64,000 nt of DNA from Candidatus Levyibacteriota bacterium (lineage in GTDB: Bacteria > Patescibacteriota > Microgenomatia > Levybacterales > UBA12049): the NCBI GenBank assembly GCA_016432345.1, contig CP066685.1:48236-112235 (forward strand), read 5' to 3'. The notes under the pieces were generated by a model that worked only from the letters and a program-made list of their open reading frames with translations, made no database searches and was not told the DNA's origin. Positions 8,833-53,157 of the stretch are shown piece after piece. Both the position numbers and the translations under genes were made by a program. The stretch's first letter is position 1, and each line of letters begins with the position of its first letter.

Positions 8833-8918
8833 AAATGCCCCCACTGGGTTGTGCTCAGAACGGTGAAGTCCTGTCCCAATGAGGGCATTAAAAAACTCCA
8901 CCTTTCTCCTGAGCACAA
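8833..8918 (-). promoter_or_regulatory. Interleaved inverted repeats in the recombinase leader
   Basis: AATGCCCCCACTGGG (8833-8847) pairs with CCCAATGAGGGCATT (8875-8889). TTGTGCTCAG (8849-8858) pairs with CTGAGCACAA (8909-8918). The order A,B,A',B' gives pseudoknot topology, and the structure ends 6 nt from the start codon. Confidence 0.35.
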
Positions 8919-8957
8919 TTAAATTGTTACAGATTTTGAACTTAAATTCAAGTGTTT

Positions 8958-9590: not shown

Positions 9591-9794
9591 ATTCCTTCTT
9601 TGGAATTGGCTTATATATCAGCTTGAAATATTCCAATAGCTCAACACCCAACTTATTTGCTTCTTCATTGCTTAACTGTTGGTTAAATTTCTCAAGATAT
9701 ATTCGCTTAAAATCACTAATAGCTTTATGACTTAACTGCATAAAACCATTATTCCAAGAATGGAGAAGATAAAAGAGTTACGGGAAAAACTAAA

Positions 9795-10619
9795 TTACAT
9801 GTAGACCGCTAGAAGCTGTTTATATCTATATATCGCTTGCTTGACGTTGGTTAGCTCAGGTATCAAATATCTGTTTTTGTTGGTTTGATATTGTTTTTTG
9901 ACTTTATCAGAGGCTATAGACAATGCAATTTTTGTATAACTTTCACCTGCTAAATTTCGCCAATACCAATCCCTATCCCTTCGAATATTGTTTGCAGGGT
10001 CTTTTTTCATCCTGTAAAAGTGTTTAAGTAGTTGCTCATTTTCTTCAAAGATTTTAGGTACATTATCCTCAAAGATTTTTATCAAATCATCTTTAGTTGT
10101 CATGGGAGAAATACGGATAATAACTTCAGGATATGGGATTTCTTCAAGATGCAGTTCAGGCGGAAATACTTCTATGCTAGTTGTTCGATAGCTACTGTCG
10201 TCAACTTCACCGCAGACAATAGCACGTTGGATTATAGAGGTAAAATATTCAGGTCTTTTAAAATCCCTGCTTAGATTTTGTGTTTCCCATTCAAACCGCT
10301 TGTAATAGGCAACATATTGAAGGCGTCTTTCTATATCTTTGGGGTGTTTCTTAATATCTTCAAGTTCAGCCTCGATTTTGCCCGATTTATATCTTTCAGC
10401 TTGCCACTCGACACTCTCAAGCATTTTCTGTGAACGCCATGCATCGAAGTCTTCGTAAGATATTAACTTATCTATTGAGAATTTTTGCCTTAGTAAGGGC
10501 AAGAGTCTTAAAAATTCAGGTTTATCAAGAAGATAGGCACAATCCATATATGCAATATCATTTTTGCAGTTTATTTTTATCTTTAGTTTTAATAAATCAG
10601 AGTTGTCTTTTTGTTTCAT
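9795..10619 (-). CDS. Hypothetical protein (element cargo)
   Basis: 274-aa ORF with no motifs I recognise. Confidence 0.45.
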   Translation of the reverse strand: MKQKDNSDLLKLKIKINCKNDIAYMDCAYLLDKPEFLRLLPLLRQKFSIDKLISYEDFDAWRSQKMLESVEWQAERYKSGKIEAELEDIKKHPKDIERRLQYVAYYKRFEWETQNLSRDFKRPEYFTSIIQRAIVCGEVDDSSYRTTSIEVFPPELHLEEIPYPEVIIRISPMTTKDDLIKIFEDNVPKIFEENEQLLKHFYRMKKDPANNIRRDRDWYWRNLAGESYTKIALSIASDKVKKQYQTNKNRYLIPELTNVKQAIYRYKQLLAVYM

Positions 10620-15464: not shown

Positions 15465-16095
15465 TTTTGTGGGTATACTTGATTTTTTGTTTCCCAAATA
15501 CTGCGTTAATTGTAAAAAGCTGGGATCGTATCTTTGCTCCGATTGCTTTTCTTACATTTCATTCAGCGAACAAAATACTAATAGTAGATATTTTTCTGCT
15601 ATTGCTTACAAAGGTGTGGTTAGGAAACTTATTTTCCAGTTTAAGTATAAACCATACTTGTCGGATCTTCGCAGTGTGTTGTCAGACCTTTTTTATGAAA
15701 GTTTAATTCAGCAAGAGAAATTTATGCAGATTTTAGAGACAAATCCTATTTTAGTTTCTATTCCGCTTCATAAATCAAGATTACAAAAGAGAGGATATAA
15801 TCATGCTCAAATTTTGGCAGAAGACCTAGCGAAGAGATTTGGTTTGTCTTACGTTGATTTACTCAAGCGGGTAAAGAAAACATTGTCGCAGTATGGTCTT
15901 AAAAAAGATGAGCGCAGAAAAAACGTTGCTGGCGCTTTTGTTTTTATAAATGATAAGCAACAAGTAATAAGAGATAGGTATGTTTTTTTAGTTGACGATA
16001 TTTTAACTACCGGCGCAACTATAAACGAAGCTACGCTGGTTCTCCAAAAAGCTGGGGCCAAAAACGTGTGGGGACTCGCCCTTGCGAGAGATTAG
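15451..16095 (+). CDS. comFC: ComF family phosphoribosyltransferase (ComFC)
   Basis: N-terminal CxxC...CxxC and the PRTase motif FLVDDILTTGATINE. Confidence 0.85.
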   Translation: MFTSNFVGILDFLFPKYCVNCKKLGSYLCSDCFSYISFSEQNTNSRYFSAIAYKGVVRKLIFQFKYKPYLSDLRSVLSDLFYESLIQQEKFMQILETNPILVSIPLHKSRLQKRGYNHAQILAEDLAKRFGLSYVDLLKRVKKTLSQYGLKKDERRKNVAGAFVFINDKQQVIRDRYVFLVDDILTTGATINEATLVLQKAGAKNVWGLALARD

Positions 16096-16097
16096 TG

Positions 16098-16505
16098 TGG
16101 AGATGTCCGAGAGTGACTCGGAGTCCAAGAGCGACAATAAAAAACATCTACAAGCATAGTTGATTTTTAAGAGTCATTTTATTCTTTGTCAATCAACAAA
16201 CATGAATAAAATCAAGGTTTAATAAATAAAATAAGGACAAAAACCAATCTTCCTTACCATTTCTCAACTGTGTTTCTGCCTATACCGTCCCATTGAGAAA
16301 GATGATATAAACAAACCTTAAGCTCTCGCTAACGCGAGTTCTCTTTGGTTAAGCATTCCAAGCTCGGACATAATTGCGTATGCCTCTGCAAAGAGTGCTC
16401 GTCTGCTGGTTTTAATAGCAGTTATTATTTGATCTTTTTTACGACTGTTATCAAAGTCGGCTTGCAGTTTTTTAACGTACATTCTTGTCGATGCAATGCA
16501 TCCCC
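16098..16505 (-). ncRNA. ssrA: tmRNA (ssrA)
   Basis: 5' GGGGATGCATTGCATCGACAAG pairs with 3' CATCTCC-A to give a 7-bp acceptor stem containing G3:U70. A tRNA-like 3' arm reads GGACTCCGAGTCACTCTCGGA. An internal frame ends ...NQRELALARA-TAA at 16318-16320. Starts 37 nt downstream of smpB on the same strand. Confidence 0.8.
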
Positions 16506-16976: not shown

Positions 16977-18716
16977 TCAGAAATCAATTTCCCATATTTT
17001 ATCACTGCTTAAGACAAAAATCTTTTTATCTTTTTCCAAAACTTCAAACTCTTGAGCATCTTTAAATATATTTGCTTGATATTGTGTTTGGTAGACACCT
17101 GTTTTATTTAAAACCACAATTCGGCTGTTGCCGTTGTCTAAAATATACAGGCTGTCTATTTCTGTATCGGTAAAAATTCTTTGCGGTTTTGATAAGGGTT
17201 TGTCAAGTTCGGAAACCTTAAAATCTTCCTGTTTGCCGCGAGTAAATTTTTTAACTTCCCCGTTTTCAAAAAGGACAAAAATCGAAGCATCAATTGCTAA
17301 CGAAGTTACTTTTGAGAAGTCTTGTGTTTTTCCAGCAAGGTAATTTGTCTTGATATATTCATCCTCGCTTGGCACAAATTTTAAAATCTGACCCCTATTT
17401 TTATCAAGCACATAAATGTTTCCGTTGTATGCCCCAAGCCCCGAAGCATTTGTCCAATGGTCTTTATTTGGAATAAGCGTTTTTTTATTTTTCGTTTTTT
17501 TATCTATAGAAAAAATGGCGCTCTCGGTTAAAACAAAGATATTTTTTTCATCTTGAGTAGAGTAGAGGGCATTATTTTCTTTTGCAGCGGTAAGAAGAAG
17601 ACTGTCTTTTGCGTCAGCAGGTTTTGCCTCCACTATGCTAATGCCCGAGGCAGATTGCAAAGCGGAGTCTATTTTTGCAGATAACTCGGAAAGTTTTTTT
17701 TCATATTTTGATCCTTTTTTAAATTTATTTTTGCCTTCATTTACAAGCTTTTTCGCTTCTAAAAAGTCGTCTCGGCTCAAGTTTTTGTTAAGCGAGAAAA
17801 GACTTTGTCCTTCATCATATTTTTTCTGGGCTTTGGAAAATACTTCTTCAAACAAAGCATCATTTTTTGCCGCCTCTTTTTGCCGCAATACAAATATGCT
17901 GCTTCCCAAAAGCAATAGAATTAAAGCTGTTGTTATAACAAGAAATGTTTTTTGTTTGCGCGAAAAACTAAAATTCAAATAATAAAAGCGATTAGATATT
18001 AAGTTTCTAATCCAGGTCCAGGTTTGAATTGACAATGTCATAATTTTCTTTTTGACATTTATCTCTTGTTTTTCTTCCATTATCGTTTGTTCTTCTGTGG
18101 TTTCTGTGAGTGTTTCTTTATAGGTAATAACTATGGCAGAGGCGCCGCCTTCTTCTTTTTCGTGCAATATAGGAGAAAGGTTTTCGGCAATTTCCGAAAG
18201 ACTGTTGTGGTCGATTGCGCTGGCAAGTTGTGTTTTGGAAATTATTTTCCCAAACTGCTCTGTTTGTAAAATAATAATGTCGTTATCCTCCAAAAACCCT
18301 GATGCAGATGCGACTATTGCTTTTTGAGAGGTTAGAAGAAGTCCTAGTTTATTTGCTCGTTTTAGATATATTTTTGAGTCTCCCACGGCAATGACATACA
18401 AAACATTGTCCAGTACCGAGCACAGCGCCAAAGATAAGCTGATATTTTCTTTTTCCAGCGCTTGTTTTATAGCAATTTCTGTGGCTGTTTTTATGGCAGA
18501 CAAAGTTTTATTCTCTATGGTGAAATACTCGGCCTCCAGCGTATTTAAAATTTCTTTGCCAATTGTGCCAAGGGATAAATCTTCGTTTACTTTTGGTTCG
18601 GATGAATACGAAATAGAAACAACAGCAAAAAGATTTCCAGCAGTATAGCTTTGAGACCAAGACGAGGCAGTTGGAGAAGCAACAACGGTTGCGGCATGTA
18701 GTCGCTTGTTTTCCAT
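16977..18716 (-). CDS. Membrane protein with N-terminal PPM/PP2C-like domain and C-terminal beta-rich domain
   Basis: NLFAVVSISY...LYVIAVGDSKIYLKR...DNDIIILQTEQF resembles a degenerate PP2C/SpoIIE fold. One TM segment (FLVITTALILLLLGSSIFVL). Function unknown. Confidence 0.45.
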   Translation of the reverse strand: MENKRLHAATVVASPTASSWSQSYTAGNLFAVVSISYSSEPKVNEDLSLGTIGKEILNTLEAEYFTIENKTLSAIKTATEIAIKQALEKENISLSLALCSVLDNVLYVIAVGDSKIYLKRANKLGLLLTSQKAIVASASGFLEDNDIIILQTEQFGKIISKTQLASAIDHNSLSEIAENLSPILHEKEEGGASAIVITYKETLTETTEEQTIMEEKQEINVKKKIMTLSIQTWTWIRNLISNRFYYLNFSFSRKQKTFLVITTALILLLLGSSIFVLRQKEAAKNDALFEEVFSKAQKKYDEGQSLFSLNKNLSRDDFLEAKKLVNEGKNKFKKGSKYEKKLSELSAKIDSALQSASGISIVEAKPADAKDSLLLTAAKENNALYSTQDEKNIFVLTESAIFSIDKKTKNKKTLIPNKDHWTNASGLGAYNGNIYVLDKNRGQILKFVPSEDEYIKTNYLAGKTQDFSKVTSLAIDASIFVLFENGEVKKFTRGKQEDFKVSELDKPLSKPQRIFTDTEIDSLYILDNGNSRIVVLNKTGVYQTQYQANIFKDAQEFEVLEKDKKIFVLSSDKIWEIDF

Positions 18717-19582: not shown

Positions 19583-19650
19583 CAGCGTTTAGCGTATAGA
19601 TAATAGCGTATAGTTTAACTAAACGCTAGACGCTAACAAACTAGACGCTG
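19583..19650. repeat. Palindromic heptad-repeat element, copy D (best preserved)
   Basis: CAGCGTT TAGCGTA TAGATAA TAGCGTA TAGTTTAACTAAACG CTAGACG CTAACAA ACTAGACGCTG. Exactly fills the gap between two co-directional genes. Confidence 0.8.
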
Positions 19651-22024: not shown

Positions 22025-23035
22025 ATGAAAACATTTGATGTTATTACCATAGGTAATGCGGTTGTTGACCTTTTTTTGGTGATTCACGATGCAAATGCTT
22101 CGATGCGGGTTGATAAGGAATTAAATGAATTATGTGTCAAGGCAGGAGAAAAGATTGAGGTAGACAGATGTGATGTAATGCTTGGAGGCAATGCCGCAAA
22201 TGCTGCGGTTGGGTTGGCAAGAAATGGTTTTATTGTTGGTCTTGCGGCAGAGATTGGCGATGATGAATTTGCCCAAAAAATTGAGCATATCTTGCAACAA
22301 GAAACGGTTGATACGACACTTCTTAAAAAAACAGAAAATGCTGCATCATCCATGACTGTTGGCATTAATTTTCAAAATGAACGAACATTATTTGTAGAGC
22401 ATGTAAAAAGGGAACATCATTTTAATTTTGATAATTTTGATACAAAATGGGTGTATTTAACAAGCTTGGGCAATGAATGGAAGGTTCCGTATGAGCGTGT
22501 TGTTAGGTATGTTAAAAAAACAGGAGCAAGACTGGCATTTAATCCAGGAACTCTGCAGGTACAGGCGAGATATGAAGAAATAAAAAACGCCATGCAGACA
22601 GCAGATATTTTGTTTCTTAATAAAGAAGAAGGTGCTAAAATTTTCAATTTTCAATTTTCAATTTTCAATGAAAACGGAAAAGAAGCAATAAAAAACCTTC
22701 TTAAAAAACTTCAGCAGGCGGGGCCGAAAGTAGTGGTGATTACCGATGGGGAAAATGGTTCTTATGCCATTGATGAGGAGGGGAAGATATGGTTTCTAGA
22801 TGTGTTTCCAGCCACGGTTGTTGAAAAAACCGGAGCAGGAGATGCTTTTGCCTCGGGTTTTATGTCGGCTATTTTAGCAGGAGAATCAGTACAGCAAGCA
22901 ATGTGCTGGGGTGCGGCTAATTCGGCAGCGGTTATCGAGCGCATTGGAGCGCAGCAAGGACTTCTTTCCAGAGAGAAAATAGAAGAAAAGCTTAAGAAAG
23001 CAGATTATTTAGCAAGATATTGCCAGACTGGATAG
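22025..23035 (+). CDS. PfkB-family carbohydrate kinase
   Basis: ITIGNAVVDLF at the N-terminus and the TGAGDAFASGF anion-hole motif. ATG at 22025 is preferred over the track start at 21986. Confidence 0.8.
   Translation: MKTFDVITIGNAVVDLFLVIHDANASMRVDKELNELCVKAGEKIEVDRCDVMLGGNAANAAVGLARNGFIVGLAAEIGDDEFAQKIEHILQQETVDTTLLKKTENAASSMTVGINFQNERTLFVEHVKREHHFNFDNFDTKWVYLTSLGNEWKVPYERVVRYVKKTGARLAFNPGTLQVQARYEEIKNAMQTADILFLNKEEGAKIFNFQFSIFNENGKEAIKNLLKKLQQAGPKVVVITDGENGSYAIDEEGKIWFLDVFPATVVEKTGAGDAFASGFMSAILAGESVQQAMCWGAANSAAVIERIGAQQGLLSREKIEEKLKKADYLARYCQTG
22639..22669 (+). repeat. Tandem heptanucleotide repeat (TTTTCAA)x4 inside the pfkB-family CDS
   Basis: Period-7 tract of 31 bp read directly from the sequence. 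Encodes KIFNFQFSIFNEN. Confidence 0.9.
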
Positions 23036-30968: not shown

Positions 30969-30997
30969 TTGACAGTAAATTATATGTATGGTATACA
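30969..30997 (+). promoter_or_regulatory. Sigma70-like promoter of the vapBC pair
   Basis: TTGACA, 17 nt, TATACA, placed 8 nt upstream of the ATG at 31006. Confidence 0.4.
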
Positions 30998-31005
30998 TTA
31001 GACAT

Positions 31006-31242
31006 ATGATACGAACACAAGTGTATTTACCTAAAGAGCTCTATCAAGAAGTGCAGTTAGTAGCCAAGAAAGAGAGCAAAAAATCTGCTCAAGTAGTGCG
31101 CGATTTATTGAGCGAGGGATTAATAAGGCGTAAGAAAAAAGTAACGATTGGAGAGGCTTTTCTTGATCTAGCTAGCGTGGCCGTAAAAGGCGGTCCTCCT
31201 GATTTATCTACAAATCATGATAAGTATCTATATGAAGACTAA
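31006..31242 (+). CDS. Ribbon-helix-helix antitoxin (VapB-like)
   Basis: MIRTQVYLPKELYQEVQLVAKKESKKSAQVVRDLL is an RHH pattern. Located upstream of, and overlapping, the PIN gene. Confidence 0.7.
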   Translation: MIRTQVYLPKELYQEVQLVAKKESKKSAQVVRDLLSEGLIRRKKKVTIGEAFLDLASVAVKGGPPDLSTNHDKYLYED

Positions 31243-31654
31243 TAAAGCAGTTATTGCAGACACAAGTGGTCTAATTTCTCTTGTTTCGAAAGATGATAGT
31301 AATTATAAAGAAGCAATTTCAATTGGTAAAAGCCTCTCAAAAGTAGAAGGAAGAATTTATATCCCAACAGAGATTTTTGCTGAGACTATGAATGTTCTTG
31401 GCAAGAAAATTAATCATGCATCAGCAATAAGAGCAGCTAGAAAGATAGAGCGCTCGCCATTTTTTTTAATTGTGGATACTACGCATGAAATTAGAAGAAG
31501 CGCGCTAGATCAATTTGAAAAAATTTCAGAATCAATAAGCTTTACTGACTGTCTTGTTATGGCATGTGCGAATTTTTATGAGACAAAAGAAATTTTTGGT
31601 TTTGACGAAGCATTTCGGAAGAATGGATATAAACGGATTGGGATTGATAAGTAA
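31217..31654 (+). CDS. vapC: PIN-domain toxin VapC
   Basis: VIADTSGLISL (first acidic residue), EIFAET and SFTDCLVMA. An alternative ATG lies at 31232. Confidence 0.8.
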   Translation: MISIYMKTNKAVIADTSGLISLVSKDDSNYKEAISIGKSLSKVEGRIYIPTEIFAETMNVLGKKINHASAIRAARKIERSPFFLIVDTTHEIRRSALDQFEKISESISFTDCLVMACANFYETKEIFGFDEAFRKNGYKRIGIDK

Positions 31655-31925: not shown

Positions 31926-31945
31926 ATATGCTATACTCAACATAT

Positions 31946-32977
31946 ATGATCAGGGTGGTAATAAATGGGTATGGACGGATTGGGCGGGTGGCGCATCGGG
32001 TGATTTTGGAGAAGCACTCATCCGAAATTGAAGTAGTGGCTATAAATGCCGGGTCGTCTACTGATATTAAAGGGTGGATGTATTTACTCAAGTACGATTC
32101 CGTATACGGATCACTCAAAAATTCAGAATTCAGAATTCAGAATTCAGAATTAAAAGATAGTATTGGCACGTTTGTGATTAATGGTAAGGAAATTCCTGTT
32201 TTCTCACAGAAAGATCCAAGTCTTTTACCCTGGAAAGATTTACAAGTTGATGTGGTTTTGGAATGCACAGGGAAACTAACAACAGAAGAAAAACTTAAAA
32301 GCCATATTACTGCTGGAGCAAAAGCAGTGGTGTTATCGGCTCCAGTCAAAGAAGGCGACATTAGTACCTATGTTTTGTCTGTTAATGCCAATGATTATAA
32401 AAACGAAAATTTAATTAGCAATGCTTCTTGTACTACAAACTGCATCGCTTCTGTTGCAAAAGTAATTTTAGATAATTTTGGGATCGAAAAAGCCATGATG
32501 ACCACCATTCACGGGTACACATCTGACCAGCGTTTGCACGATGGAGGACACAAGGATTACCGTCGGGCAAGAGCAGCAGCCCTAAACATTATTCCAACCT
32601 CAACAGGCGCCACCAAAGCTGCAGCCAAAACCATACCAGAGCTTAAAGATAAATTCACCGGCCTGGCCATTCGCGTGCCTGTTGCGGTTGGTTCGTTGTC
32701 TGATTTTACTTTTTTAGTTTCCAAAAATACTACCAAAGAAGAAATTAATGAGGTTCTTAAAAAAGCAGCTAAAGATGCCAAATATAAAGGTATATTAGAT
32801 GTAACAGAAGATCCAATTGTGTCAAGCGATATTATTGGTAGTAGCTACTCATCAATTGTAGATTTATCGCTAACTCAAGTAGTTGGAGGAAATATGATTA
32901 AAGTAATTGCTTGGTATGACAATGAATGGGGATACGCAAATAGGTTGGTTGAAGAAGCAATCATGGTTGGAAAATGA
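31946..32977 (+). CDS. gap: Glyceraldehyde-3-phosphate dehydrogenase
   Basis: VINGYGRIGR, the active site ASCTTNCIA and WYDNEWGY. ATG at 31946 is preferred. Confidence 0.9.
   Translation: MIRVVINGYGRIGRVAHRVILEKHSSEIEVVAINAGSSTDIKGWMYLLKYDSVYGSLKNSEFRIQNSELKDSIGTFVINGKEIPVFSQKDPSLLPWKDLQVDVVLECTGKLTTEEKLKSHITAGAKAVVLSAPVKEGDISTYVLSVNANDYKNENLISNASCTTNCIASVAKVILDNFGIEKAMMTTIHGYTSDQRLHDGGHKDYRRARAAALNIIPTSTGATKAAAKTIPELKDKFTGLAIRVPVAVGSLSDFTFLVSKNTTKEEINEVLKKAAKDAKYKGILDVTEDPIVSSDIIGSSYSSIVDLSLTQVVGGNMIKVIAWYDNEWGYANRLVEEAIMVGK
32120..32151 (+). repeat. Tandem heptanucleotide repeat (AATTCAG)x4.5 inside gap
   Basis: Period-7 tract of 32 bp. Encodes NSEFRIQNSEL in a loop that is about 8 aa longer than in the E. 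coli and B. subtilis GapA sequences I recall. Confidence 0.9.
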
Positions 32978-34323: not shown

Positions 34324-34409
34324 TTAGAAACTAGCGTTCAGCGTCTAGTTATACTATAATAATAACTAAAATAATAACTAAGCGCTAGACTCTAATAACT
34401 AAACGCTAA
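34317..34409. repeat. Heptad-repeat element, copy E (degenerate, in the nrdR leader)
   Basis: ATAGCGTTTAGAAACTAGCGTTCAGCGTCTAG ... AAGCGCTAGACTCTAATAACTAAACGCTAA. Confidence 0.5.
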
Positions 34410-34412
34410 CGT

Positions 34413-34863: not shown

Positions 34864-37800
34864 ATGAAATTAGAAGGAATTAGAGAAAAAGTATTTTTAG
34901 ATAGGTATTCCTTAAAAGATAAGGAAGGTAAACCAGTAGAAAAAACTCCAGAGGAAATGTGGCGTCGTGTTGCAAAGGGAGTTGCAAAAGTTGAAAAGCC
35001 AAAACTTCGTAAAGTGTGGGAAGACAAGTTTTATAAAGCCATGGAATATTTTAAATTTGTTCCAGGGGGCAGGGTTTTGGCAGGCGCGGGCACTGGGTAT
35101 GCAGTAACATTCTATAATTGTTTCGTTATCCCTTCTCCCAAAGACTCCAGGGGTGGCATTTTAGACACTTTAAAACAAATGGTGGAGATTATGGCACACG
35201 GCGGTGGAGTGGGTATTAATTTGTCGTCTCTTAGGCCCCGAGGATTTAGAGTCAAAAAAGTCAATGGTTTTTCTTCTGGTCCTTGCAACTGGGCAGAGCT
35301 TTTTTCGGTTGCCACCAAAGATATTATCCAGCAAGGGGGGAGCCGGCGCGGGGCTTTAATGCTAATGCTGTGGGATTGGCATCCAGATATCGAGGAATTT
35401 ATTACTGTCAAGCAGGATTTAACCCGCATTAATGGTGCAAATTTGTCGGTTTGCGCCTCGGATGAATTTATGGAGGCAGTCAAAAAAGATGCAGATTGGG
35501 ATTTGATTTTCCCCGATACAACGGATCCAGAGTACGACGAAAAGTGGGATGGTATTATGGCTAATTGGAAAAAGATGGGTAAGAAAGTTAAAGTTTATAA
35601 AACAGTCAAAGCCAGACACTTGTGGGATCTTATTTGTAAAGCTGCCTGGACAAGTGCCGAGCCAGGACTGGTTTTTATGGAGCGTTACAACAAATGGTAT
35701 AACAACTGGTACTGGAATACCATTAATTGTGTTAATCCATGCGTAACTGGAGATACGTTGGTTTCCACAACCAATGGTTTGCAGTCCATGAGAAAACTCT
35801 ACGATGGTGGTATGCCATTTAGAGTGGTAGTTGATGGAAAACATTATTTGTCTACTCATGTTAAGTTAACCGGCGTAAAGCCTGTATATAAGCTTAAAAC
35901 CCGCGAAGGATACGAGCTGCGGTTGACAGAAGATCATAAAGTCTTTACTACGAATGGTAAAAAGGAAGCAGGAAAGCTGGTAGCAGGAGAAAAAATTCTT
36001 TTATCTGCAGGTGGCGCTTTTGGAACGGTTGGTACATTAGATGAAGGACGAGTGTTAGGATGGTTGGTGGGAGATGGATCAATGAAAGAAGATGTGGCAA
36101 CGCTCTTTTTCTATAGAAAAGAAAAGCAAGAGCTCGCCCCACAATTTGCTTTGATGGTTGAAAAAATGGTTGAGGGGGAACAAGTAGTTGCAAGGTCATA
36201 TCCAGTAGCTCCTCAATATGTTGAGAAAGAAGATAAGGCAGTTGTCGAGTCGGTAAGATTGTGGAGAATAGCAAATAGGTATGGTATAACACATGCAAAT
36301 AAATATGTTGTCCCGGAAAAAATCTTTGAAGGAGCCGAGGAATTTCAGCGAGGATTTTTGCAGGGTCTTTTTTCAAGCGATGGGAGCGTGCAGGGGACAG
36401 TGCAAAAGGGTGTAAGTGTTAGATTGACATCTATTAGTAGAGAACTTCTTGTTGGCGCACAAAAACTGCTTCTTAATTTTGGTATTGTCAGTAAATTGTA
36501 TGAAAATAGACGAGTCGCGCAATCTAGATTTTTGCCAGACGGTAAAGGAGGCAGCAAAGAGTATATGTGTAAAGCCTATCATGAGTTGGTTGTTGCCAAA
36601 GATAGTCTTATTGCCTATGCAGCACTGGTCGGTTTTTTACAAGAGGAAAAACAAGAGAAACTTCGAACACTATTATCTTTGTATAAAGAAGGTCCATATA
36701 AACAGCCTTTTGTGGCAACGTTCTCCTCTCTCAAGGCAGGGGGTGTTGAAGAGGTGTTTGATATAACTGTTTCAGATATCCATAGATTTTCTGCAAATGG
36801 TCTTGTTGTTTCTAATTGCGGTGAAGAGGGATTACCGGCGTGGGGCGTTTGCAACCTTGCCTCTCTTAATTTATCAGCGTTTGTTAAGGGGTATACACTT
36901 GATAAACCGGGGACGTTTGATTATGAAAGTTTGGCAGAGCATGCCCGAATTGGCGTAAGGTTTCAAGATGATGTGGTGGATGCCGACCAGTATGTGTACC
37001 CGCAGATTAAAGAGATGCAGCTTAATGGCGAACGACGCATTGGGCTTGGAACACTAGGTTTGGCAGACGCTTTAATTAAAATGCATCTTCGTTATGGGAG
37101 TGCCGAGGCCCAAAAAGTGGTTGATAAAATCTACCAGACCATCCGCGATGCAGCATATGATGAATCAATTAACATTGCCAAAGAAAAAGGAGCATTCCCC
37201 AAGATTAATGTTAAAAAGCATCTTCTGGGGTATTTTATAAAACAGTTGCCAGAGGGAGTAAAGAAGAAAATGCAAAAGTACGGGGTAAGAAATTCCATGT
37301 TGCTTCAGGCTGCGCCAACCGGCACAACAAGTTTACTTTCTGGGGCATCATCTGGTGTTGAACCTGTTTATGAATTTGAATACACCCATAATGGTCGTTT
37401 GGGCAAACAAACCGTTTTTCATTCGCTCTACGGCGAATGGAAAAAGGCTCACCCAGATGCAAAAAGACCAGACTACTTTGTTGGTGCCAACGATTTAACG
37501 CCAGAAGACCATGTCAAAATTCAGGCCACAGTCCAGAAATATGTCGACGCCTCCATCTCTAAAACTGTGAATGCTCCAAATGCCCATACAGTTGAGGATG
37601 TGAAGAAACTCTATATGATGGCATACGACGCAGGCTGCAAAGGGATTACCTATATGCGGGATGGGAGTAGATTAGGTGTTTTACAGCGGGTAGAGGAGCC
37701 AAGCGTTTCCCAGCCAGCAATTATGAAGCGCCCGATTATGGTCCAGGGCGTTACATACCAAACTAATACTCCTGTTGGTGAAGCATTTGTTACTATCAAT

Positions 37801-38277
37801 CATAACGAAAAACACGAACCATTCGAAGTCTTTATTACTATCGGTAAATCCGGGTCTGATATCGCAGCTATGGCCGAGGCCTTGGGCAGAACTATTTCCC
37901 TTTCTTTACGCTTAAACGGTGGTTTGCCGGCGCGGGAAAGAATTCGCCAGGTGATTGCGCAACTAGCAGGTATTGGAGGCGCAGGGAGTGTGGGTTTTGG
38001 GAAAGATAGGGTGCGATCTTTGCCTGATGCAGTGGCCAAAGTGCTAGCTAAACATTATGGATTTCGGGTAAATGGAAAAGTAGAAGATAAAGAAGAGGGC
38101 ACTGTAAGTAATGGGCATGTTGCCGAGGCAACAGGTATGAGTATGGTTCAGCAATTGGCTATTGATGGGTCGTCTTCGACAAGCTTGTTTGATCTATGCC
38201 CAGACTGCGGAGCAGGAACTTTTGCCTACGAAGAAGGTTGTAAAAAATGCTATTCATGCGGATACTCGGCGTGTTGA
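34864..38277 (+). CDS. nrdJ: Class II (adenosylcobalamin-dependent) ribonucleotide reductase NrdJ, intein-containing
   Basis: The extein is about 778 aa. The active-site NPCGE motif is split as ...INCVNP | intein | CGEEGLPAWGVCNLASLNL. A C-terminal Cys-rich tail reads CPDCGAG...CKKCYSCGYSAC. Confidence 0.9.
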   Translation: MKLEGIREKVFLDRYSLKDKEGKPVEKTPEEMWRRVAKGVAKVEKPKLRKVWEDKFYKAMEYFKFVPGGRVLAGAGTGYAVTFYNCFVIPSPKDSRGGILDTLKQMVEIMAHGGGVGINLSSLRPRGFRVKKVNGFSSGPCNWAELFSVATKDIIQQGGSRRGALMLMLWDWHPDIEEFITVKQDLTRINGANLSVCASDEFMEAVKKDADWDLIFPDTTDPEYDEKWDGIMANWKKMGKKVKVYKTVKARHLWDLICKAAWTSAEPGLVFMERYNKWYNNWYWNTINCVNPCVTGDTLVSTTNGLQSMRKLYDGGMPFRVVVDGKHYLSTHVKLTGVKPVYKLKTREGYELRLTEDHKVFTTNGKKEAGKLVAGEKILLSAGGAFGTVGTLDEGRVLGWLVGDGSMKEDVATLFFYRKEKQELAPQFALMVEKMVEGEQVVARSYPVAPQYVEKEDKAVVESVRLWRIANRYGITHANKYVVPEKIFEGAEEFQRGFLQGLFSSDGSVQGTVQKGVSVRLTSISRELLVGAQKLLLNFGIVSKLYENRRVAQSRFLPDGKGGSKEYMCKAYHELVVAKDSLIAYAALVGFLQEEKQEKLRTLLSLYKEGPYKQPFVATFSSLKAGGVEEVFDITVSDIHRFSANGLVVSNCGEEGLPAWGVCNLASLNLSAFVKGYTLDKPGTFDYESLAEHARIGVRFQDDVVDADQYVYPQIKEMQLNGERRIGLGTLGLADALIKMHLRYGSAEAQKVVDKIYQTIRDAAYDESINIAKEKGAFPKINVKKHLLGYFIKQLPEGVKKKMQKYGVRNSMLLQAAPTGTTSLLSGASSGVEPVYEFEYTHNGRLGKQTVFHSLYGEWKKAHPDAKRPDYFVGANDLTPEDHVKIQATVQKYVDASISKTVNAPNAHTVEDVKKLYMMAYDAGCKGITYMRDGSRLGVLQRVEEPSVSQPAIMKRPIMVQGVTYQTNTPVGEAFVTINHNEKHEPFEVFITIGKSGSDIAAMAEALGRTISLSLRLNGGLPARERIRQVIAQLAGIGGAGSVGFGKDRVRSLPDAVAKVLAKHYGFRVNGKVEDKEEGTVSNGHVAEATGMSMVQQLAIDGSSSTSLFDLCPDCGAGTFAYEEGCKKCYSCGYSAC
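35740..36816 (+). mobile_element. Intein (359 aa) with LAGLIDADG homing-endonuclease domain
   Basis: Starts CVTGDTLV, has block B LRLTEDHKVF, and ends GLVVSN followed by +1 Cys. LAGLIDADG motifs are LGWLVGDGSM and FLQGLFSSDGSV. Confidence 0.85.
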
Positions 38278-38278: not shown

Positions 38279-38680
38279 ATGGAAGAACAAAACAATAGAA
38301 GATTTGCCAATATTTTTATTGGTATTTTGATCCTTTTAATCATTGGATATTTTGGTTATGGATATATTGCTTCTCAAGATGCTGCAAAAAAAAGCGCAGA
38401 ATTAACAACACAGAATAAACCAACTCCAACTATCGTCCTTGTTGATTATGTGAAGTATCAAGGAAAAACAGGAAAGAATGCTATGCAGCTTTTGCAAGAA
38501 AAATCTTCAGTTGAGACTGCAACATCAGGACTTATTATTGCTATTAATGGAAGAAGAGCAGATAATGCAAAACGTGAGTATTGGGCATTTTATGTGAACG
38601 GCAAACTGGCAACTGTTGGCTCGTCTGATTATCAAACAAAGGATGAAGATATGATTGAGTGGAAAATAGATAAGTATTAA
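38279..38680 (+). CDS. DUF4430-like protein with membrane anchor (possible cobalamin binder)
   Basis: TM anchor, then YWAFYVNGKLATVGSSDYQTKDEDMIEWK, which resembles the DUF4430 domain related to the transcobalamin beta-domain. Start trimmed to the ATG at 38279. Confidence 0.5.
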   Translation: MEEQNNRRFANIFIGILILLIIGYFGYGYIASQDAAKKSAELTTQNKPTPTIVLVDYVKYQGKTGKNAMQLLQEKSSVETATSGLIIAINGRRADNAKREYWAFYVNGKLATVGSSDYQTKDEDMIEWKIDKY

Positions 38681-38685
38681 GTATT

Positions 38686-39219
38686 ATGTATCAAGTATTA
38701 AGGGAGATAACGAATCCATTATTAATTATTGGTATTGCTGTTGCTTTGCGGCTTGTGCCGCATCCTGCAAATTTTGCGCCGATTGGGGCTATGGCGTTGT
38801 TTGGAGGAGCATATCTTAACAAGAAATATGCATTAGCAGTACCACTACTAGCAATGTTGGTATCGGATTTTTTTATTGGTTTTCATAATACCATGGGTTT
38901 TGTGTATGCAAGCTTTTTACTTATTGGCATTCTTGGTTTGTGGTTAAGAAGGCACAAAAATGTTAGAAATGTGATAGGTGCTGCGTTTGTTTCCTCAATA
39001 CTTTTTTTCCTTATTACCAACTTTGGAGTATGGTTGGTTAGTAATATCTATCCAAAAACTGCTGCAGGACTAATAGAATGTTATGTTGTAGCAATCCCGT
39101 TTTTTAGAAATACATTACTTGGAGATTTGTTTTATGTAGGTTTATTTTTTTTTGGTTACGAAGCAGTGTTGAGGTTTATAAAAAGCTATGGTCAAAATCT
39201 ACACAAAAACAGGGGATAA
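38686..39219 (+). CDS. Small multi-pass membrane protein (candidate vitamin/B12 transporter component)
   Basis: About 5-6 TM segments. The HPANFAPIGAMALFGGAYL motif resembles S-component-like membrane proteins. The function is inferred from context only. Confidence 0.4.
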   Translation: MYQVLREITNPLLIIGIAVALRLVPHPANFAPIGAMALFGGAYLNKKYALAVPLLAMLVSDFFIGFHNTMGFVYASFLLIGILGLWLRRHKNVRNVIGAAFVSSILFFLITNFGVWLVSNIYPKTAAGLIECYVVAIPFFRNTLLGDLFYVGLFFFGYEAVLRFIKSYGQNLHKNRG

Positions 39220-39727
39220 AGGGGAGACATCGCTATATGGCGGAAAAAGAGTATCAAAAGCAGATCTAAGAGTTGAAGCCTATGGGACAGTGGATGAACT
39301 CAACAGCGCAATAGGTATTACGATTGCGCAATTTTCAAATAAATCTCAAATAATAAATCTCAAAAAAGAACTTACACAAATTCAAAATGATTTGTTTGAA
39401 ATTGGCTCAATCTTAGCGAGTCCATCAACTATACGCTATACGCTAGACGCTAGACGCTTGGAGAAGATGATTGATGAGATGACAAAAGAACTTCCAGAGC
39501 TTCGAAACTTTATTTTGCCAGGAGGAGGTATTGTAGGTTCGTATTTGCATCTTACTCGTTCGATTGCAAGGCGGGCAGAACGAAGAATTGTTGTATTGTC
39601 TCAAAAAGAGCAGGTTGACAAAAGTATTTTAATGTATTTTAATCGTCTTTCTGATTTGCTGTTTACCATGGCTAGGTTTGTAAATTATAAAGAAAATAAA
39701 AAAGAAGTTATTTGGACAAATAAATAG
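39188..39727 (+). CDS. pduO: PduO-type ATP:cob(I)alamin adenosyltransferase
   Basis: KIYTKTGDKGETSLYGGKRVSK, DELNSAIG, NFILPGG and ARRAERR. Confidence 0.9.
   Translation: MVKIYTKTGDKGETSLYGGKRVSKADLRVEAYGTVDELNSAIGITIAQFSNKSQIINLKKELTQIQNDLFEIGSILASPSTIRYTLDARRLEKMIDEMTKELPELRNFILPGGGIVGSYLHLTRSIARRAERRIVVLSQKEQVDKSILMYFNRLSDLLFTMARFVNYKENKKEVIWTNK
39429..39458 (+). repeat. Heptad array (CTATACG CTATACG CTAGACG CTAGACG) in frame inside pduO
   Basis: This is the right-arm type of the palindromic family. 22 nt (39424-39445) are identical to 52944-52965. Encodes STIRYTLDARR. Confidence 0.9.
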
Positions 39728-39818
39728 ACGGGTGAAACCTTGTGAAATTCAAGGGTAGTGCCGCTACTGTGACAACCAGAGCCCCGATATGAGTCTTCCG
39801 AGCAGAAGCGTTTTTTTT
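39728..39818 (+). ncRNA. Candidate cobalamin riboswitch (short variant)
   Basis: GGUGAAACCUUGUGAAAUUCAAGGGUAGUGCCGCUACUGUGA aligns without gaps to the core consensus AGGGAAnnnnGGUGnAAnUCCnnnnCnGnnCCCGCnACUGUnA. The CCUUG-UGAAAUU-CAAGG hairpin resembles P4/L4, and CGGG...CCCG forms a closing helix. A U8 run precedes the ATG at 39819. Confidence 0.45.
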
Positions 39819-40916
39819 ATGGAAAGAGAAGTAAGATTAGGCTCGCAAGCTTTTGATGTTGAAAAAGAAAGAGTATACGGAAATAAACAAATTCGTGATG
39901 ATTTAGTGTCGTATTTAGACGAATATCGTTTGCAAGTATCAAAACATGGTTTTGAATTTCAATATTCTGGTTATAAGGTTAAGGATATATATAGTGGCGA
40001 GCCAATGAGCGTTAAGACAAAACGAACTTTAGCAGAGCGACGAGCAAAAGGATTGCCAATACACAGAGAATTAGCAGAAGATGCAGGTATTGAAAGTCTT
40101 GATGAGCAGTTGGCATATGCCAAAGAAGGAGACCGTATTTTTTGGATGAGCCCGCCAGGACCAAAAGAAGATGGATATGGTAATTATGGCTTTGTTTTTG
40201 AAGGTAGAGTTGTGGGTGAGCGTCTTTTTATGACTGCAAATCGAATAGAAAAACCAACTATTGCCCAGTGCAACAAAGCATTTTTTGAATTAACAAGAGA
40301 TAATGTTGGCTATATAAATCCAGAGGGATTTTTAGCCAACCCCAGAGTTGTTAGAAATAGTATGGTTGATGCAGATTTTATCTTGCAAAGAAATTTTTCG
40401 TTTGCAGTAGATCAGAAAGAAGCATTAATAAATAAACAAGTTATTGCAGAAATGGATTCGATGATTGATGAATTTGTTGGGGTAGTAAAAACAGGCACGC
40501 GAGAAGAAAAGATTACTGCTTTTCATGCGCTGGAAAATTACGCGCTCGAACTCAAAAAACGTCTTATGCATAAGGCCGAAGCAAGGGAAAACGATAACAT
40601 TATTTTTATGAGCGAATATCGTGATCATAGATATTTAGCAGATATACTGAATGTCTATGGATATATGCCCCCCATTGTTGCGGGAAGCTGTGGACCAACC
40701 GGAGAGGAAACAAAAAGTAACGATCTGTTTGCCGATAATTTTAAAGATTTAATGAAGGCAATTTTTGGAGACTTGAAGGAGATGTTTGGTATTGATGAAG
40801 AATCTTATTCTTTTGATAAGAGCGGTACGTGTGTGCGGTGCAAAAACGAAGGCATGCTTGGTCCGTGTAATTTGTGTCAAGGGTGTGATAGCTACTTACG
40901 ATTGCAAGCCGCGTAA
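39819..40916 (+). CDS. Hypothetical protein with C-terminal Cys cluster
   Basis: 366 aa from the ATG at 39819 (the track start 39789 lies inside the leader structure). Ends CVRCKNEGMLGPCNLCQGCDSYL. No family recognised. Confidence 0.5.
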   Translation: MEREVRLGSQAFDVEKERVYGNKQIRDDLVSYLDEYRLQVSKHGFEFQYSGYKVKDIYSGEPMSVKTKRTLAERRAKGLPIHRELAEDAGIESLDEQLAYAKEGDRIFWMSPPGPKEDGYGNYGFVFEGRVVGERLFMTANRIEKPTIAQCNKAFFELTRDNVGYINPEGFLANPRVVRNSMVDADFILQRNFSFAVDQKEALINKQVIAEMDSMIDEFVGVVKTGTREEKITAFHALENYALELKKRLMHKAEARENDNIIFMSEYRDHRYLADILNVYGYMPPIVAGSCGPTGEETKSNDLFADNFKDLMKAIFGDLKEMFGIDEESYSFDKSGTCVRCKNEGMLGPCNLCQGCDSYLRLQAA

Positions 40917-40962: not shown

Positions 40963-41427
40963 ATGGATGATACTGTCCAGAATTCAGTTCAAAGTTCAAA
41001 GTTCAAAGTTCAAAGCCAGACGCAGGGAGACGATAGTGCGACGACCCAAGTTCAGTCTCAGGTTGTTCCGCAGCCTGTTGGATCAGTTGCAAAAGAACAT
41101 GGGCCGATTGAGGAATACATTAAATCATCGGGAGCAGAATTAGAGCTTATTATACCAGAGGAACTTAAAAATCATGTTGAGGTGGTTTCGGATCGGGAAA
41201 AACCACAGCTTACTCATCATCATAAAGCAGTTGGAATTCATCCCGCCAAAGAATCGGTGTCTGTAGCTGTACAGCCGCAGCAGGTAATTCAGCTCCCAAT
41301 GACAGAAGAAGAGGCTTTGCAAGCAATAAAAACAACAAGCATAAGCGATTCCAAACATTGGATGGCTGTTTTAATTGAAAAGGTTTATGAACATATAAGA
41401 AATATGCATAGAAGAATAACAAATTAG
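40963..41427 (+). CDS. Hypothetical protein
   Basis: 154-aa ORF ending 1 nt before the next gene. The N-terminus contains a heptamer repeat, so the start codon is uncertain. Confidence 0.4.
   Translation: MDDTVQNSVQSSKFKVQSQTQGDDSATTQVQSQVVPQPVGSVAKEHGPIEEYIKSSGAELELIIPEELKNHVEVVSDREKPQLTHHHKAVGIHPAKESVSVAVQPQQVIQLPMTEEEALQAIKTTSISDSKHWMAVLIEKVYEHIRNMHRRITN
40986..41015 (+). repeat. Tandem heptanucleotide repeat (GTTCAAA)x4
   Basis: Period-7 tract of 30 bp. Preceded by CAGAATTCAG, which matches the unit of the gap repeat. Confidence 0.9.
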
Positions 41428-49520: not shown

Positions 49521-49800
49521 TACGCGCGGGGTAGTGTAGAGTGCACGTGAGGCTCAAAATGGGCCCTTTTATTAGTAATAATGAGAGAGAACTTAGCTAT
49601 ATCGGTAAAATCCCCCTTCGCATAAAGTTTTGGAGGGACAATACCGAGGGAATCCGCAAACTGGCGGAACACCGTAGAGACTACACGCTAAGCTCCCGAT
49701 ACTATCGGGATGATGATATAGTCCGACACTCCAAGCAATTGGAGAAACAGATCGCATAATCTCACAGGCTGGGCGCAACTCCCAGCCCCGCAACACATTT
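49521..49800 (+). ncRNA. Unclassified structured RNA (stand-alone sRNA or long 5' leader of the MFS gene)
   Basis: Hairpins: CGGTA...TACCG (49603-49646) enclosing TCCCCC/GGAGGGA; TCCGC-AAACTG-GCGGA (49653-49668); CCCGAT-ACT-ATCGGG (49695-49709); CTCCAA-GCAA-TTGGAG with a GNRA loop (49729-49744); GGCTGGG-CGCAACT-CCCAGCC (49767-49787) followed by a T5 run. A possible closing helix is GCGGGG/CCCCGC. The ORFs on both strands look like noise. Confidence 0.4.
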
Positions 49801-51821: not shown

Positions 51822-53157
51822 AGATAAAAAAATTGCGGTTTTGGGAATGGGAATAGAGGGAGAATCAAGCGCAGAATTCCTTCGTAAGCGCGGTGCCAAT
51901 GTTGCAGAATTAGATCAGAAAATAGATAAAGATTATCTTGAGTATCTGGAAAAGTTTGACATGATTGTTAGAAGTCCGGGAATTAAAAGAAATCTTCCTC
52001 AACTTATTGAAGCAGAAAAAAAAGGAGTAATTATTACCTCCCAAACCAAACTTTTTTTTGATATGTGTCCCTGTCCAATTATTGGTGTGACCGGTACTAA
52101 AGGAAAGGGGACAACATCTGCGCTTATTTATGAAATGTTAAAAGAATCTGGTAAGGATGTGTATTTAGGTGGCAATATTGGTAATCCTCCATTTACATTT
52201 TTGGATAAACTTACTATTCAGTCAAAAGTGGTTTTAGAAATGTCTAGTTTTCAACTGCAAGACATGACTGTAAGTCCGCACATTGGTGTTGTTTTAATGA
52301 TTACTCAAGAACATTTAGCTCCTGATAAAAAAGACAGTCCAGACCAGAATTTTCATACCGATATTTATGAATATATTGATGCCAAAAGAAACATTATTCG
52401 TTTTCAGAGCAATAAAGATTTTGCAGTAATCAATAGAGACTATATTGCCAGTAACGAGTCGGATATCACAACCGCGGGAAAAGTATTTCATGTCAGCCGC
52501 GAGCAGGGAGTTAGTCAGGGAGCATATGTAAAAAATAATGTAGTATTCTTGCGGTTTAACGATAAAGAGCAAAAAATTATTGATGCAAAAGACGTCTTGC
52601 TTCGGGGTGGACATAATTTGGAAAACGTGTGTGCAGTGGTGATGGCGGCAACGCTTTCCGGCGTAACGGCTAAAAATATAGTTTCAGTCTTAACCAGTTT
52701 TCGAGGACTGGAACATAGGCTGCAGTTTATTGGCCAAGTGAGTGGAGTTGAGTATTATGACGATTCGTTTTCGACTACTCCCGAAACTGCTATTGCGGCA
52801 ATCCAGGCCTTTACCGAGCCGGAGGTTTTAATTCTGGGAGGCGCACATAAGGGGAGCGATTTTACCGAGTTAGGCAGGGTTATTAGTGAAGCAAAAAATA
52901 TCAAAGCCATTATCGGCATCGGCATTGAGTGGAGCAGGATAAAATCAACTATACGCTATACGCTAAACGCTATGCGTTATATTGAAGGATGTGGGGATAT
53001 GCAGGAGATTGTACGAAAGGCAGCCGAGGTGGCAAAGCCGGGGGATGTGGTGGTATTGAGTCCTGCCTGTAGTAGTTTTGATATGTTTAAAAATTACAAA
53101 GACCGGGGCGAGCAGTTTAAGAGGGAAGTTGGAAAATTAGAACTCTATACTCCATAA
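51808..53157 (+). CDS. murD: UDP-N-acetylmuramoylalanine--D-glutamate ligase
   Basis: IAVLGMGIEG, GVTGTKGKGTTS, GGNIGNP and LSPACSSFDMFKNYKDRG. ATG at 51808 is preferred. Confidence 0.9.
   Translation: MYDFKDKKIAVLGMGIEGESSAEFLRKRGANVAELDQKIDKDYLEYLEKFDMIVRSPGIKRNLPQLIEAEKKGVIITSQTKLFFDMCPCPIIGVTGTKGKGTTSALIYEMLKESGKDVYLGGNIGNPPFTFLDKLTIQSKVVLEMSSFQLQDMTVSPHIGVVLMITQEHLAPDKKDSPDQNFHTDIYEYIDAKRNIIRFQSNKDFAVINRDYIASNESDITTAGKVFHVSREQGVSQGAYVKNNVVFLRFNDKEQKIIDAKDVLLRGGHNLENVCAVVMAATLSGVTAKNIVSVLTSFRGLEHRLQFIGQVSGVEYYDDSFSTTPETAIAAIQAFTEPEVLILGGAHKGSDFTELGRVISEAKNIKAIIGIGIEWSRIKSTIRYTLNAMRYIEGCGDMQEIVRKAAEVAKPGDVVVLSPACSSFDMFKNYKDRGEQFKREVGKLELYTP
52949..52976 (+). repeat. Heptad array (CTATACG CTATACG CTAAACG CTATGCG) in frame inside murD
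   Basis: Same element type and same reading frame as the copy in pduO. Encodes STIRYTLNAMRY. Confidence 0.9.

Follow-up and report, generated by a model that had tools for sequence, protein, structure and literature searches.

A heptanucleotide array within gap of a Candidatus Levyibacteriota bacterium is ancient, in frame and part of a lineage-wide class of period-7 arrays

The stretch of DNA analyzed here (64,000 nt, hereafter the window) comes from a Candidatus Levyibacteriota bacterium (contig CP066685.1 of assembly GCA_016432345.1) and contains gap, a gene for type I glyceraldehyde-3-phosphate dehydrogenase (GAPDH) whose coding sequence contains a perfect tandem array of the heptanucleotide AATTCAG. 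This tract is real, ancient and in frame, and it is a member of a class of heptanucleotide arrays that extends throughout the lineage. The explanation favored here, with a probability of about 0.68, is that such arrays are made and homogenized by slippage or misaligned copying in a 7-nt register and are then filtered by selection. The gap tract would be one of a genome-wide Levybacteria population of ~30-nt period-7 arrays, in which strand slippage would add or drop whole 7-nt units and/or transient misalignment or out-of-register repair would overwrite an adjacent unit, leaving the length unchanged. In genes, selection would restrict net change to multiples of 21 nt (three units, seven codons), would demand a sense strand free of in-frame stops across the three frames, and would confine the peptide to a tolerant, usually surface-exposed segment. 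The gap array has stayed at ~4.6 units, and its unit has repeatedly been exchanged for another, in several or all copies at once.

The array occupies positions 32120–32151 (+ strand) and consists of 4.6 copies of AATTCAG (32 nt, 100% matches, Tandem Repeats Finder (TRF) score 64); a direct reading of the sequence agrees with the TRF call. It lies in an open reading frame (ORF) at 31928–32977, in which the annotated start at 31946 yields a 343-amino-acid (aa) product (gap, 31946–32977, + strand). This product matches, at 100% identity, the NCBI protein P0001, entitled ‘type I glyceraldehyde-3-phosphate dehydrogenase [Candidatus Levyibacteriota]’, whose source contig is 762 kb, i.e., a small genome. 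Pfam assigned Gp_dh_N (PF00044; 103 bits, cut-off 31.7) and Gp_dh_C (PF02800; 200 bits, cut-off 24.4), in agreement with the precomputed Pfam hits of P0001. The top PDB match was 1hdg, the Thermotoga GAPDH (E = 4.5e-103, residues 3–337), and the translation contains the catalytic-cysteine motif SCTTNC, with ASCTTN aligned to 1hdg. These matches confirm the host gene named in a preliminary description of the window. That description had also read the period-7 tract correctly: codon 59 begins at 32120, and the array specifies residues N59–L69 (NSEFRIQNSEL), flanked by KYDSVYG and FVINGK. The loop had been put at about 8 residues longer than usual, and it is indeed 8 residues longer than in two solved GAPDHs, 1hdg and 3b1j (Synechococcus). 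Because 7 and 3 have no common factor, three units are read in all frames and the encoded peptide has a 7-residue period.

An AlphaFold model of the GAPDH, built with 27 close sequences, was used to locate the loop, as the preliminary description had proposed. The model is poor overall (predicted local distance difference test score 63.5, predicted template-modeling score 0.55) and fair in the N-terminal domain, and the secondary structure of that domain alone was used. Residues 62–65 (FRIQ) and 72–78 (SIGTFVI) are modeled as paired strands with an enlarged turn. The modeled hairpin corresponds to the peripheral KVEYTE-NSLIVDG hairpin of 1hdg, and the catalytic motif is untouched. On this model, the array would supply one strand (the first) and the turn of a β-hairpin at the periphery of the N-terminal domain, which binds nicotinamide adenine dinucleotide.

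Neither chance nor technical error accounts for the tract. Fifty Markov shuffles of the window produced 0 arrays of comparable quality, which excludes a chance origin for 32120–32151. The likelihood of an assembly or sequencing artefact is negligible: the identical array is present in an independent assembly (GCA_964544105.1), and at least eight further independent assemblies (NCBI, ENA, JGI, Logan) have a homologous array at this codon.

The DNA of the gap loop was aligned in heptamer register for twelve loci, the window and eleven orthologues, which are designated here by locus (L081 and so on). The window and L081 are identical, with four AATTCAG units followed by AATTA. L210 has a perfect array of four AGTTCAG units plus AGTTG, L205 reads AACTCAG AACTCAG AACTCAA AACTCAG AAGTA, and L209 reads AGTTCAA AATTCAA AATTCAA AGTTCAA AGTTA. 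The loops of L208, L206, L207, L083, L084 and L082 are increasingly mixed or decayed, and the period-7 signal is absent from the outgroup, L001 (72% identity). The Levybacteria arrays begin at the same codon and comprise ~4.6 units in all cases except the longer L082 array. To judge from this alignment, the gap array predates the divergence of the sampled Levybacteria. The preliminary description had implied a recent, local and gene-specific expansion, and this finds no support in the unit number and the codon at which the arrays begin, both of them shared, in L081, which carries the identical array at 77% nucleotide identity over gap, or in the length of the window's loop, which falls in the commonest class among relatives. 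Close relatives with loops of equal length and no shared periodicity had been named as the finding that would weaken a slippage origin; the opposite was found, as relatives share both loop length and periodicity.

The units of an array change together. In L205, T-to-C changes are present in 4 of 5 unit positions and amount to two synonymous and two non-synonymous codon changes, and in L210, A-to-G changes are present in 5 of 5, three of them synonymous. Unit-wide changes of this kind are unattainable by parallel point mutation or by selection on the protein, which argues for homogenization at the level of DNA. Units differ on average at 1.04 of 7 nt within arrays, compared to 1.58 of 7 nt between species at matched unit position. 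On these comparisons the copies of the gap array evolve concertedly, being homogenized as DNA. The same process bears on the strong conservation of the tract between the window and L081. Of the conserved degenerate codons in these two genes, 137 of 285 differ, and the longest run of identity (47 nt) falls exactly on the array, the next longest being 19 nt. This run can be attributed to homogenization together with the use of every unit position as codon positions 1, 2 and 3; because each unit position is read in all three, no unit-wide change is silent. The slower-than-synonymous evolution of the array can therefore be explained without invoking a DNA-level function.

Selection on the protein was considered as another reason for the persistence of the loop. 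In this explanation the 7-residue-periodic hairpin (NSEFRIQ NSEL) would provide GAPDH with a lineage-specific surface interaction or with stability. An enlarged loop is kept in nearly all Levybacteria GAPDHs, its C-terminal segment NSELKDSIG is conserved in many relatives, and strands 62–65 and 72–78 are paired in the model. However, the first half of the array peptide is very variable (NSELRTQ, SSKFKIQ, DIKNQRS, LEFRVQ). In the protein alignment the loop is hypervariable, both in sequence and in length (14–41 residues), and in many relatives its peptide has a 7-residue period. Parallel synonymous changes across units are beyond the reach of protein selection, and the same type of repeat is found in many unrelated proteins and in intergenic DNA. 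Selection on the hairpin is thus improbable as the explanation of the array.

A coding simple sequence repeat with a non-triplet unit is also the classical signature of phase variation, and one-unit slips could in principle toggle GAPDH in the manner of a contingency locus such as neuO. One phosphoglycerate kinase (PGK) gene, described below, is in fact ‘off’ through one extra unit. However, the loop is in frame in 12 of the 12 gap loci read as DNA, and all 120 recovered GAPDH homologues were called full-length (338–388 aa, 99–100% query coverage). An array of 4.6 units is short beside phase-variable tracts (neuO has 3–53 units), and GAPDH, PGK, GuaA and MurD are housekeeping proteins rather than surface or restriction functions. 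A contingency role is very unlikely on these grounds.

Some changes in length occur in steps of three units. Among 88 parsed GAPDH homologues, loop lengths of 14 (n = 2), 19–24 (57), 26–30 (18), 33–36 (10) and 41 (1) residues were observed, forming a ladder with rungs ~7 residues apart. A 7-residue difference was also found in PGK, where the segment after GHLGRP has 7 residues and no array in L083 and 14 residues derived from (CAATTCG)x4 in L208; in other lineages this site holds AATTTTC, AAA[TG]TCA or GAATCAA arrays. The preliminary description was right that three-unit, in-frame steps are tolerated, as both proteins show. The extra residues cannot, however, be equated with three extra units of this array, as the GAPDH class with a short loop of canonical length still retains 4.6 degenerate units. 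The PGK genes of relatives contain two to four separate arrays at recurrent sites, with lineage-specific units (array regions L208 4323–5170, L209 6420–7142, L210 2304–2434 and L084 8328–8466).

A step of one unit was observed in L083 (GCA_043823085.1). Its PGK gene (8808–9969) is split into two ORFs at the sequence AAATGGC AAATGGC AAAT (9737–9754, x2.6), and once 7 nt are removed the frame is whole again and encodes a PGK of 384 aa, which aligns over its full length with that of L209. The break may reflect a pseudogene, a variant within the population or an error in the consensus; taken at face value, it shows directly that a glycolytic gene has slipped by one unit.

The idea that every array is a 7-residue insertion was rejected. 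Compared to homologues, the net length of the array segment is +3 residues in a ribokinase-like kinase, −3 to −7 in a PduO-type adenosyltransferase, −2 in GuaA and +2 in MurD. In these four hosts the array peptide takes up a segment that homologues have as well, and this, together with the arrays in short-loop GAPDHs, indicates that arrays also overwrite existing sequence. The constant unit number in gap and the placement of arrays over existing sequence suggest that transient misalignment or out-of-register repair acts alongside net slippage.

The gap tract is far from alone. In the window, 7 arrays were found at period 7 and 0 at periods 4–6, 8 and 10–12, compared to 0 in the 50 shuffles. 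When four syntenic Levybacteria loci were added (148 kb in total), there were 19 period-7 arrays and 1 at period 9; the 10 arrays at period 14 are the same arrays as those at period 7. As a background, 79 GAPDH loci of other phyla, taken from a reference-genome GAPDH scan among the matches listed, contained 8 arrays in 1.33 Mb, 6 of them in two loci. A slightly looser threshold gave 43 arrays of 27–52 nt in 205 kb from nine Levybacteria sources (~1 per 5 kb). These are not predominantly intergenic: 33 of the 43 (77%) lie inside ORFs of at least 90 aa, the coding hosts including GAPDH, PGK, GuaA, MurD, PurL, the PduO adenosyltransferase and the ribokinase-like kinase. The 43 arrays represent 29 unit necklaces, none of which is TAACTGA, GGGNATC or a unit of the short tandemly repeated repetitive (STRR) sequences (CCCCAGT, TTGGTCA, CAACAGT).

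Within genes, the orientation of the arrays follows that of the gene because stops are avoided on the sense strand. The consensus unit is stop-free in the sense direction in 24 of the 33 coding arrays and in the antisense direction in 4 of the 33. Where a unit contains TAA or TGA, the in-frame copy is a variant (PGK; L208 GATTTAA, L210 AAATTGA). Of all sense 7-mers, 65% are circularly stop-free, giving an effective vocabulary of ~740 units, 13% of which have TCA. Most coding arrays contain TCA, in units of A-run, T-run and C type (TCAAAGT, TCAGAAT, TCAATTT), and units are shared across unrelated loci. The stop-codon filter was rejected as the sole cause of this vocabulary, as TCA is present in only 13% of the ~740 units, yet it dominates. 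The preference for TCA units could reflect peptide tolerance, in the form of hydrophilic loops rich in S, Q, K and N, or a mechanistic bias.

Arrays of the gap unit are also found well outside this lineage. An exact search of metagenomes for three AATTCAG units returned at least 120 stretches, of which 80 loci (L085–L164) were retained for analysis. These loci range from 34 to 68% GC and have unrelated flanks. The lengths of their perfect (AATTCAG)n arrays are bimodal (25–27 and 32–33 nt), which indicates that the arrays tend to start and finish in the AATT core, and ~40% lie in a long open frame in a translatable orientation. The 80 contigs contain 152 period-7 arrays, compared to at most 10 at any other period. 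Genomes rich in heptamer arrays are accordingly widespread, with ~4–5 units as the typical size.

Many of the metagenomic AATTCAG arrays adjoin arrays of other heptamers or their own reverse complement. In L139 (243–584), six (CTGAATT)x3–5 arrays with starts 55–67 nt apart lie inside a 292-codon open frame; this repeat of repeats could be a repetitive protein, and its spacing bears a superficial likeness to the repeat-spacer pattern of clustered regularly interspaced short palindromic repeats. A 19-kb locus from Chloroflexales (L034) holds four heptamer arrays, and at 18255–18323 (GAATGTT)x4 is followed by its reverse complement (AACATTC)x4, making a perfect hairpin. In L122, an AATTCAG array and a GAPDH hit lie 2.4 kb apart, and a link between the two was dismissed as coincidence.

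Such a distribution raises the question of whether arrays are inserted pre-formed, either as mobile or horizontally spread elements resembling repetitive extragenic palindromic (REP) sequences or miniature inverted-repeat transposable elements (MITEs), or as transposon footprints with 7-bp target duplications. Identical units do occur at non-homologous loci, both within and between genomes, and the metagenomic spread of (AATTCAG)n over the GC range given above is of the kind expected of mobile sequence, as is the horizontal spread proposed for TAACTGA repeats (PMC4679880). In the window, a CTATACG family shares a 12-nt start, AACTAWACGCTA, which is present at 15 places as compared to 0.6 expected and forms intergenic palindromes; shared ends and inverted repeats, the mark of REP and MITE elements, are found in this separate family. 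In contrast, the metagenomic AATTCAG arrays lack the shared flanks of such elements. The gap unit variants are one or two substitutions apart at the same codon, consistent with descent and homogenization in situ, no array of the window is accompanied by a transposase or recombinase, and the L083 PGK event is a simple local duplication of 7 nt. Pre-formed insertion is accordingly given little credence, about as little as selection on the GAPDH hairpin.

A somewhat better, though still unlikely, alternative is that the arrays are functional cis-elements in RNA or single-stranded DNA, read by a protein with a 7-nt footprint (cold-shock-domain or S1-type oligonucleotide/oligosaccharide-binding fold), with ~4–5 units being selected. 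Coding arrays would then be putative binding sites embedded in mRNAs. Such a role would fit a copy number that holds at ~4.6 across deep divergence even as the unit is exchanged in several or all copies, the conservation of the gap array beyond synonymous sites, the ~30-nt length common to arrays from every locus and from unrelated bacteria, which resembles a published four-unit preference, and unit preferences in excess of the stop-filter expectation. CspB binds one heptamer per protomer, and S1, Csp or CsrA have been proposed as readers of TAACTGA (PMC4679880). However, 29 necklaces among 43 arrays make a single sequence-specific reader unlikely. Arrays are decayed or absent at orthologous sites (L207, L084, PduO of L081, PGK of L083) with no visible consequence, and strand orientation is already explained by stop avoidance.

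Two further observations concern the form that a cis-element might take. The GAATTC palindromes of the gap array allow it to self-fold (−7.6 kcal/mol, z = −4.4), but a conserved RNA hairpin was rejected because the orthologous AGTTCAG and AACTCAG arrays are non-palindromic. For the same reason, the weight that the preliminary description had placed on the EcoRI-like GAATTC finds no support. Three complete GAATTC sites lie within the gap array, and the whole window contains 20, as compared to 25 ± 5 expected, so that the site is neither avoided nor enriched. An Rfam scan of the window found no known RNA family overlapping any array.

Slippage or misaligned copying under selection remains the preferred explanation, with the arrays themselves presumably neutral. 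Several points weigh against it. No within-species variation in unit number was seen, the 90% clusters of P0001 and of a second protein, P0002, having one member each. No gap orthologue with 1.6 or 7.6 units of the main array was found among those recovered; homogenization through cycles of ±three units is thus without direct support, and length-neutral conversion is favored rather than demonstrated. Simple slippage predicts neither the constant 4.6 units nor ~30-nt arrays everywhere, unrelated bacteria included. The choice of TCA-rich, recurring units is not accounted for by the stop-free filter, the four other hosts show replacement of a segment (−7 to +3 residues) and not a gain of 7, and the slippage model gives no reason for period 7. 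In view of these points, a more speculative idea deserves mention as a minority possibility: that period-7 arrays of 4–5 units are the footprint of one undescribed process, common to many bacteria, which also lies behind the STRR sequences and the four-unit preference. This process may be a templated overwriting of ~30-nt patches in a 7-nt register during replication or repair, or may involve a heptamer-reading maintenance factor.

The other arrays of the window illustrate the range of hosts and units. Perfect arrays begin at 22639, 32120 and 40986; those at 38671, 39429, 52949 and 54893 are near-perfect, and three others, at 19584, 61595 and 6103, are weaker. A perfect (AATTTTC)x4.4 array (22639–22669, + strand) lies in the ribokinase-like PfkB gene, where it encodes KIFNFQFSIFN; the same unit recurs at unrelated loci in L082 and L209. 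(TAAGTAT)x4.6 (38671–38702, + strand) spans the stop of a DUF4430 gene and the start of a DUF6580 gene, a boundary at which relatives have arrays built of other units. In the PduO-type cobalamin adenosyltransferase gene, (CTATACG/CTAGACG)x4.3 (39429–39458, + strand) encodes TIRYTLDARR. This array is kept in L083, replaced by (GAATCAA)x4 in L082 and absent from L081. In guaA, the gene for guanosine monophosphate synthase, (AAATCTT/AAATCTC)x4.6 (54893–54924, + strand) encodes EILNLKSQISN. Adjacent sub-variants follow an AABB order in the arrays at 39429 and 54893, a pattern that points to copying from neighbor to neighbor. A CTATACG-type array of x4.7 in murD (52949–52981, + strand) encodes STIRYTLNAMRY, and a degenerate (AAAACTT)-type array of x3.7 (61595–61620, − strand) lies in an interdomain segment of purL, the gene for phosphoribosylformylglycinamidine (FGAM) synthase.

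A 154-aa ORF of no known family has a perfect (AGTTCAA)x4.3 array (40986–41015, + strand) at its 5’ end, after AGAATTCA. The preliminary description had noted that part of the gap unit recurs beside this array, and positions 40977–40986, immediately before it, do read CCAGAATTCA. The recurrence is real but amounts to only 8 nt; the gap array and this fragment are the only occurrences of AATTCAG in the window.

Two of the weaker arrays are hairpins. The intergenic one at 19584–19650 (− strand, z = −3.5) has arms made of AGCGTAT-type heptamer arrays and their reverse complement, and an AGCGTAT / ACGCTAG heptamer hairpin lies between two tRNA genes at 6103–6160 (− strand). Both belong to a dispersed palindromic AGCGTAT / ACGCTAN family (2497–2565, 3600–3665, 6103–6160, 19584–19650 and 34340–34410; also 39427 and 52947), two palindromes of which fold as hairpins (z = −2.7 and −3.5). 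The 15 places at which AACTAWACGCTA was counted allow for at most 1 mismatch, and its copies are mostly inverted pairs, intergenic, beside tRNA genes and upstream of nrdR. The PduO and murD coding arrays both begin with this 12-mer and both encode STIRYTL.

Other features of the locus were recorded as well. Directly upstream of gap is a pair consisting of a ribbon-helix-helix antitoxin and a PIN toxin (30988–31654), and L081 has three such pairs at this place. The large subunit of ribonucleotide reductase (34864–38277) has 1137 aa in the window, 1204 aa with Intein_splicing and LAGLIDADG domains in L081, and ~800–850 aa in L082–L084, L209 and L210; these differences in length and the domains of L081 suggest an intein in some lineages only. 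An adenosylcobalamin (AdoCbl-II) riboswitch aptamer (39716–39792, + strand; 39.8 bits, gathering score 36.5) overlaps the final 12 nt of the PduO-type ORF (39188–39727) and reaches the start of the next gene (39789–40916). Rfam also identified a group I intron at 49545–49745 (+ strand; 66.5 bits, gathering score 50), around which ARAGORN found no tRNA. The transfer-messenger RNA gene (16095–16505, − strand; 89 bits) is unusually long at 411 nt.

Heptamer repeats as such are known. As relayed in PMC4679880, the survey of Mrazek (2007) found heptanucleotides to be the most abundant class of long simple sequence repeats in most prokaryotic genomes, and proposed slippage over the polymerase footprint, 7 nt being the stretch in contact with the polymerase. 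The LSSR5-11 repeats of that survey (Mrazek et al. 2007, via PMC4679880 and PMC4692102) are like the arrays described here in their head-to-tail 7-nt units, the dominance of period 7, their scatter over the genome and the slippage origin proposed for them. According to the parts of the survey reported there, LSSR5-11 occur mainly in large genomes (Burkholderia, Xanthomonas, cyanobacteria, actinobacteria) and are likeliest to be coding when the unit length is a multiple of three, whereas the Levybacteria genome is small and 77% of its heptamer arrays lie in ORFs, including those of core enzymes.

The GGGNATC arrays of Xanthomonas and Nostoc and the STRR sequences (Rehm et al. 2015, PMC4692102) are likewise genome-wide, and some form structures. 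Heptamer arrays were reported there to prefer ~four units. GGGNATC arrays are G-rich, form G-quadruplexes, are over-represented between genes and are under-represented on the coding strand. In Levybacteria, by contrast, A and T dominate the units, which are found mainly on the sense strand of genes. No G-quadruplex is possible from such units, so the four-unit preference in this lineage is not owed to that structure. The TAACTGA repeats (MacGregor 2015, PMC4679880) are similar in other respects. They occur in 2–6 copies and, within ORFs, only as the stop-free ‘reverse’ TCAGTTA (LSVISYQ), at the periphery of the protein. When reverse-complemented, the units of Levybacteria share with them an ending in [CT]TGA. 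However, the repeats of Beggiatoaceae, cyanobacteria and Bacteroidetes have one dominant unit and are ~85% intergenic, just upstream of start codons, whereas the Levybacteria arrays have many units and are mostly coding and internal to conserved enzyme domains.

A coding parallel is the variable-number tandem repeat of neuO in E. coli K1 (PMC13001214), in which the 7-nt unit AAGACTC is read in three frames and the phase-variable gene is in frame, and its product full length, only at multiples of three units. Rich in A and bridged by TCA (CTCAAGA), this unit is a single substitution away from ATCAAGA, a unit found in Levybacteria. The neuO gene is an accessory gene carried by a phage and has the repeat at its 5’ end, in 3 to 53 units, a number that differs among strains as well as inside a strain and that often disrupts the frame, whereas the gap array is fixed at 4.6 units in a housekeeping gene and none was seen out of frame. 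No report of heptamer repeats in Patescibacteria or the candidate phyla radiation (CPR) was found in literature searches. The kind of repeat is known; what is new is its presence in a CPR lineage with a small genome, the bias toward coding sequence in core enzymes, the fixed unit number and the visible, codon-anchored concerted evolution.

Two questions date back to the STRR sequences and, as later papers relay it, the 2007 survey: what makes period 7 dominate, and what favors about four units. Most of the arrays known so far lie between genes, in sequence that soon ceases to be alignable from one species to another. The Levybacteria arrays lie in conserved enzymes, and orthologous arrays can be placed to the exact codon across many genomes. 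They show a fixed copy number alongside replacement of the unit in several or all copies, replacement of existing sequence as well as insertion, and single-unit slips that occur and break genes. If the undescribed process considered above is real, it would act freely in Levybacteria genes as a major generator of protein loops, and the codon-anchored orthologous arrays would allow it to be dissected. On the preferred explanation, a slippage-type process would be a routine source of surface loops in the core proteins of a reduced CPR genome, and each array would be a latent frameshift hotspot in an essential gene.

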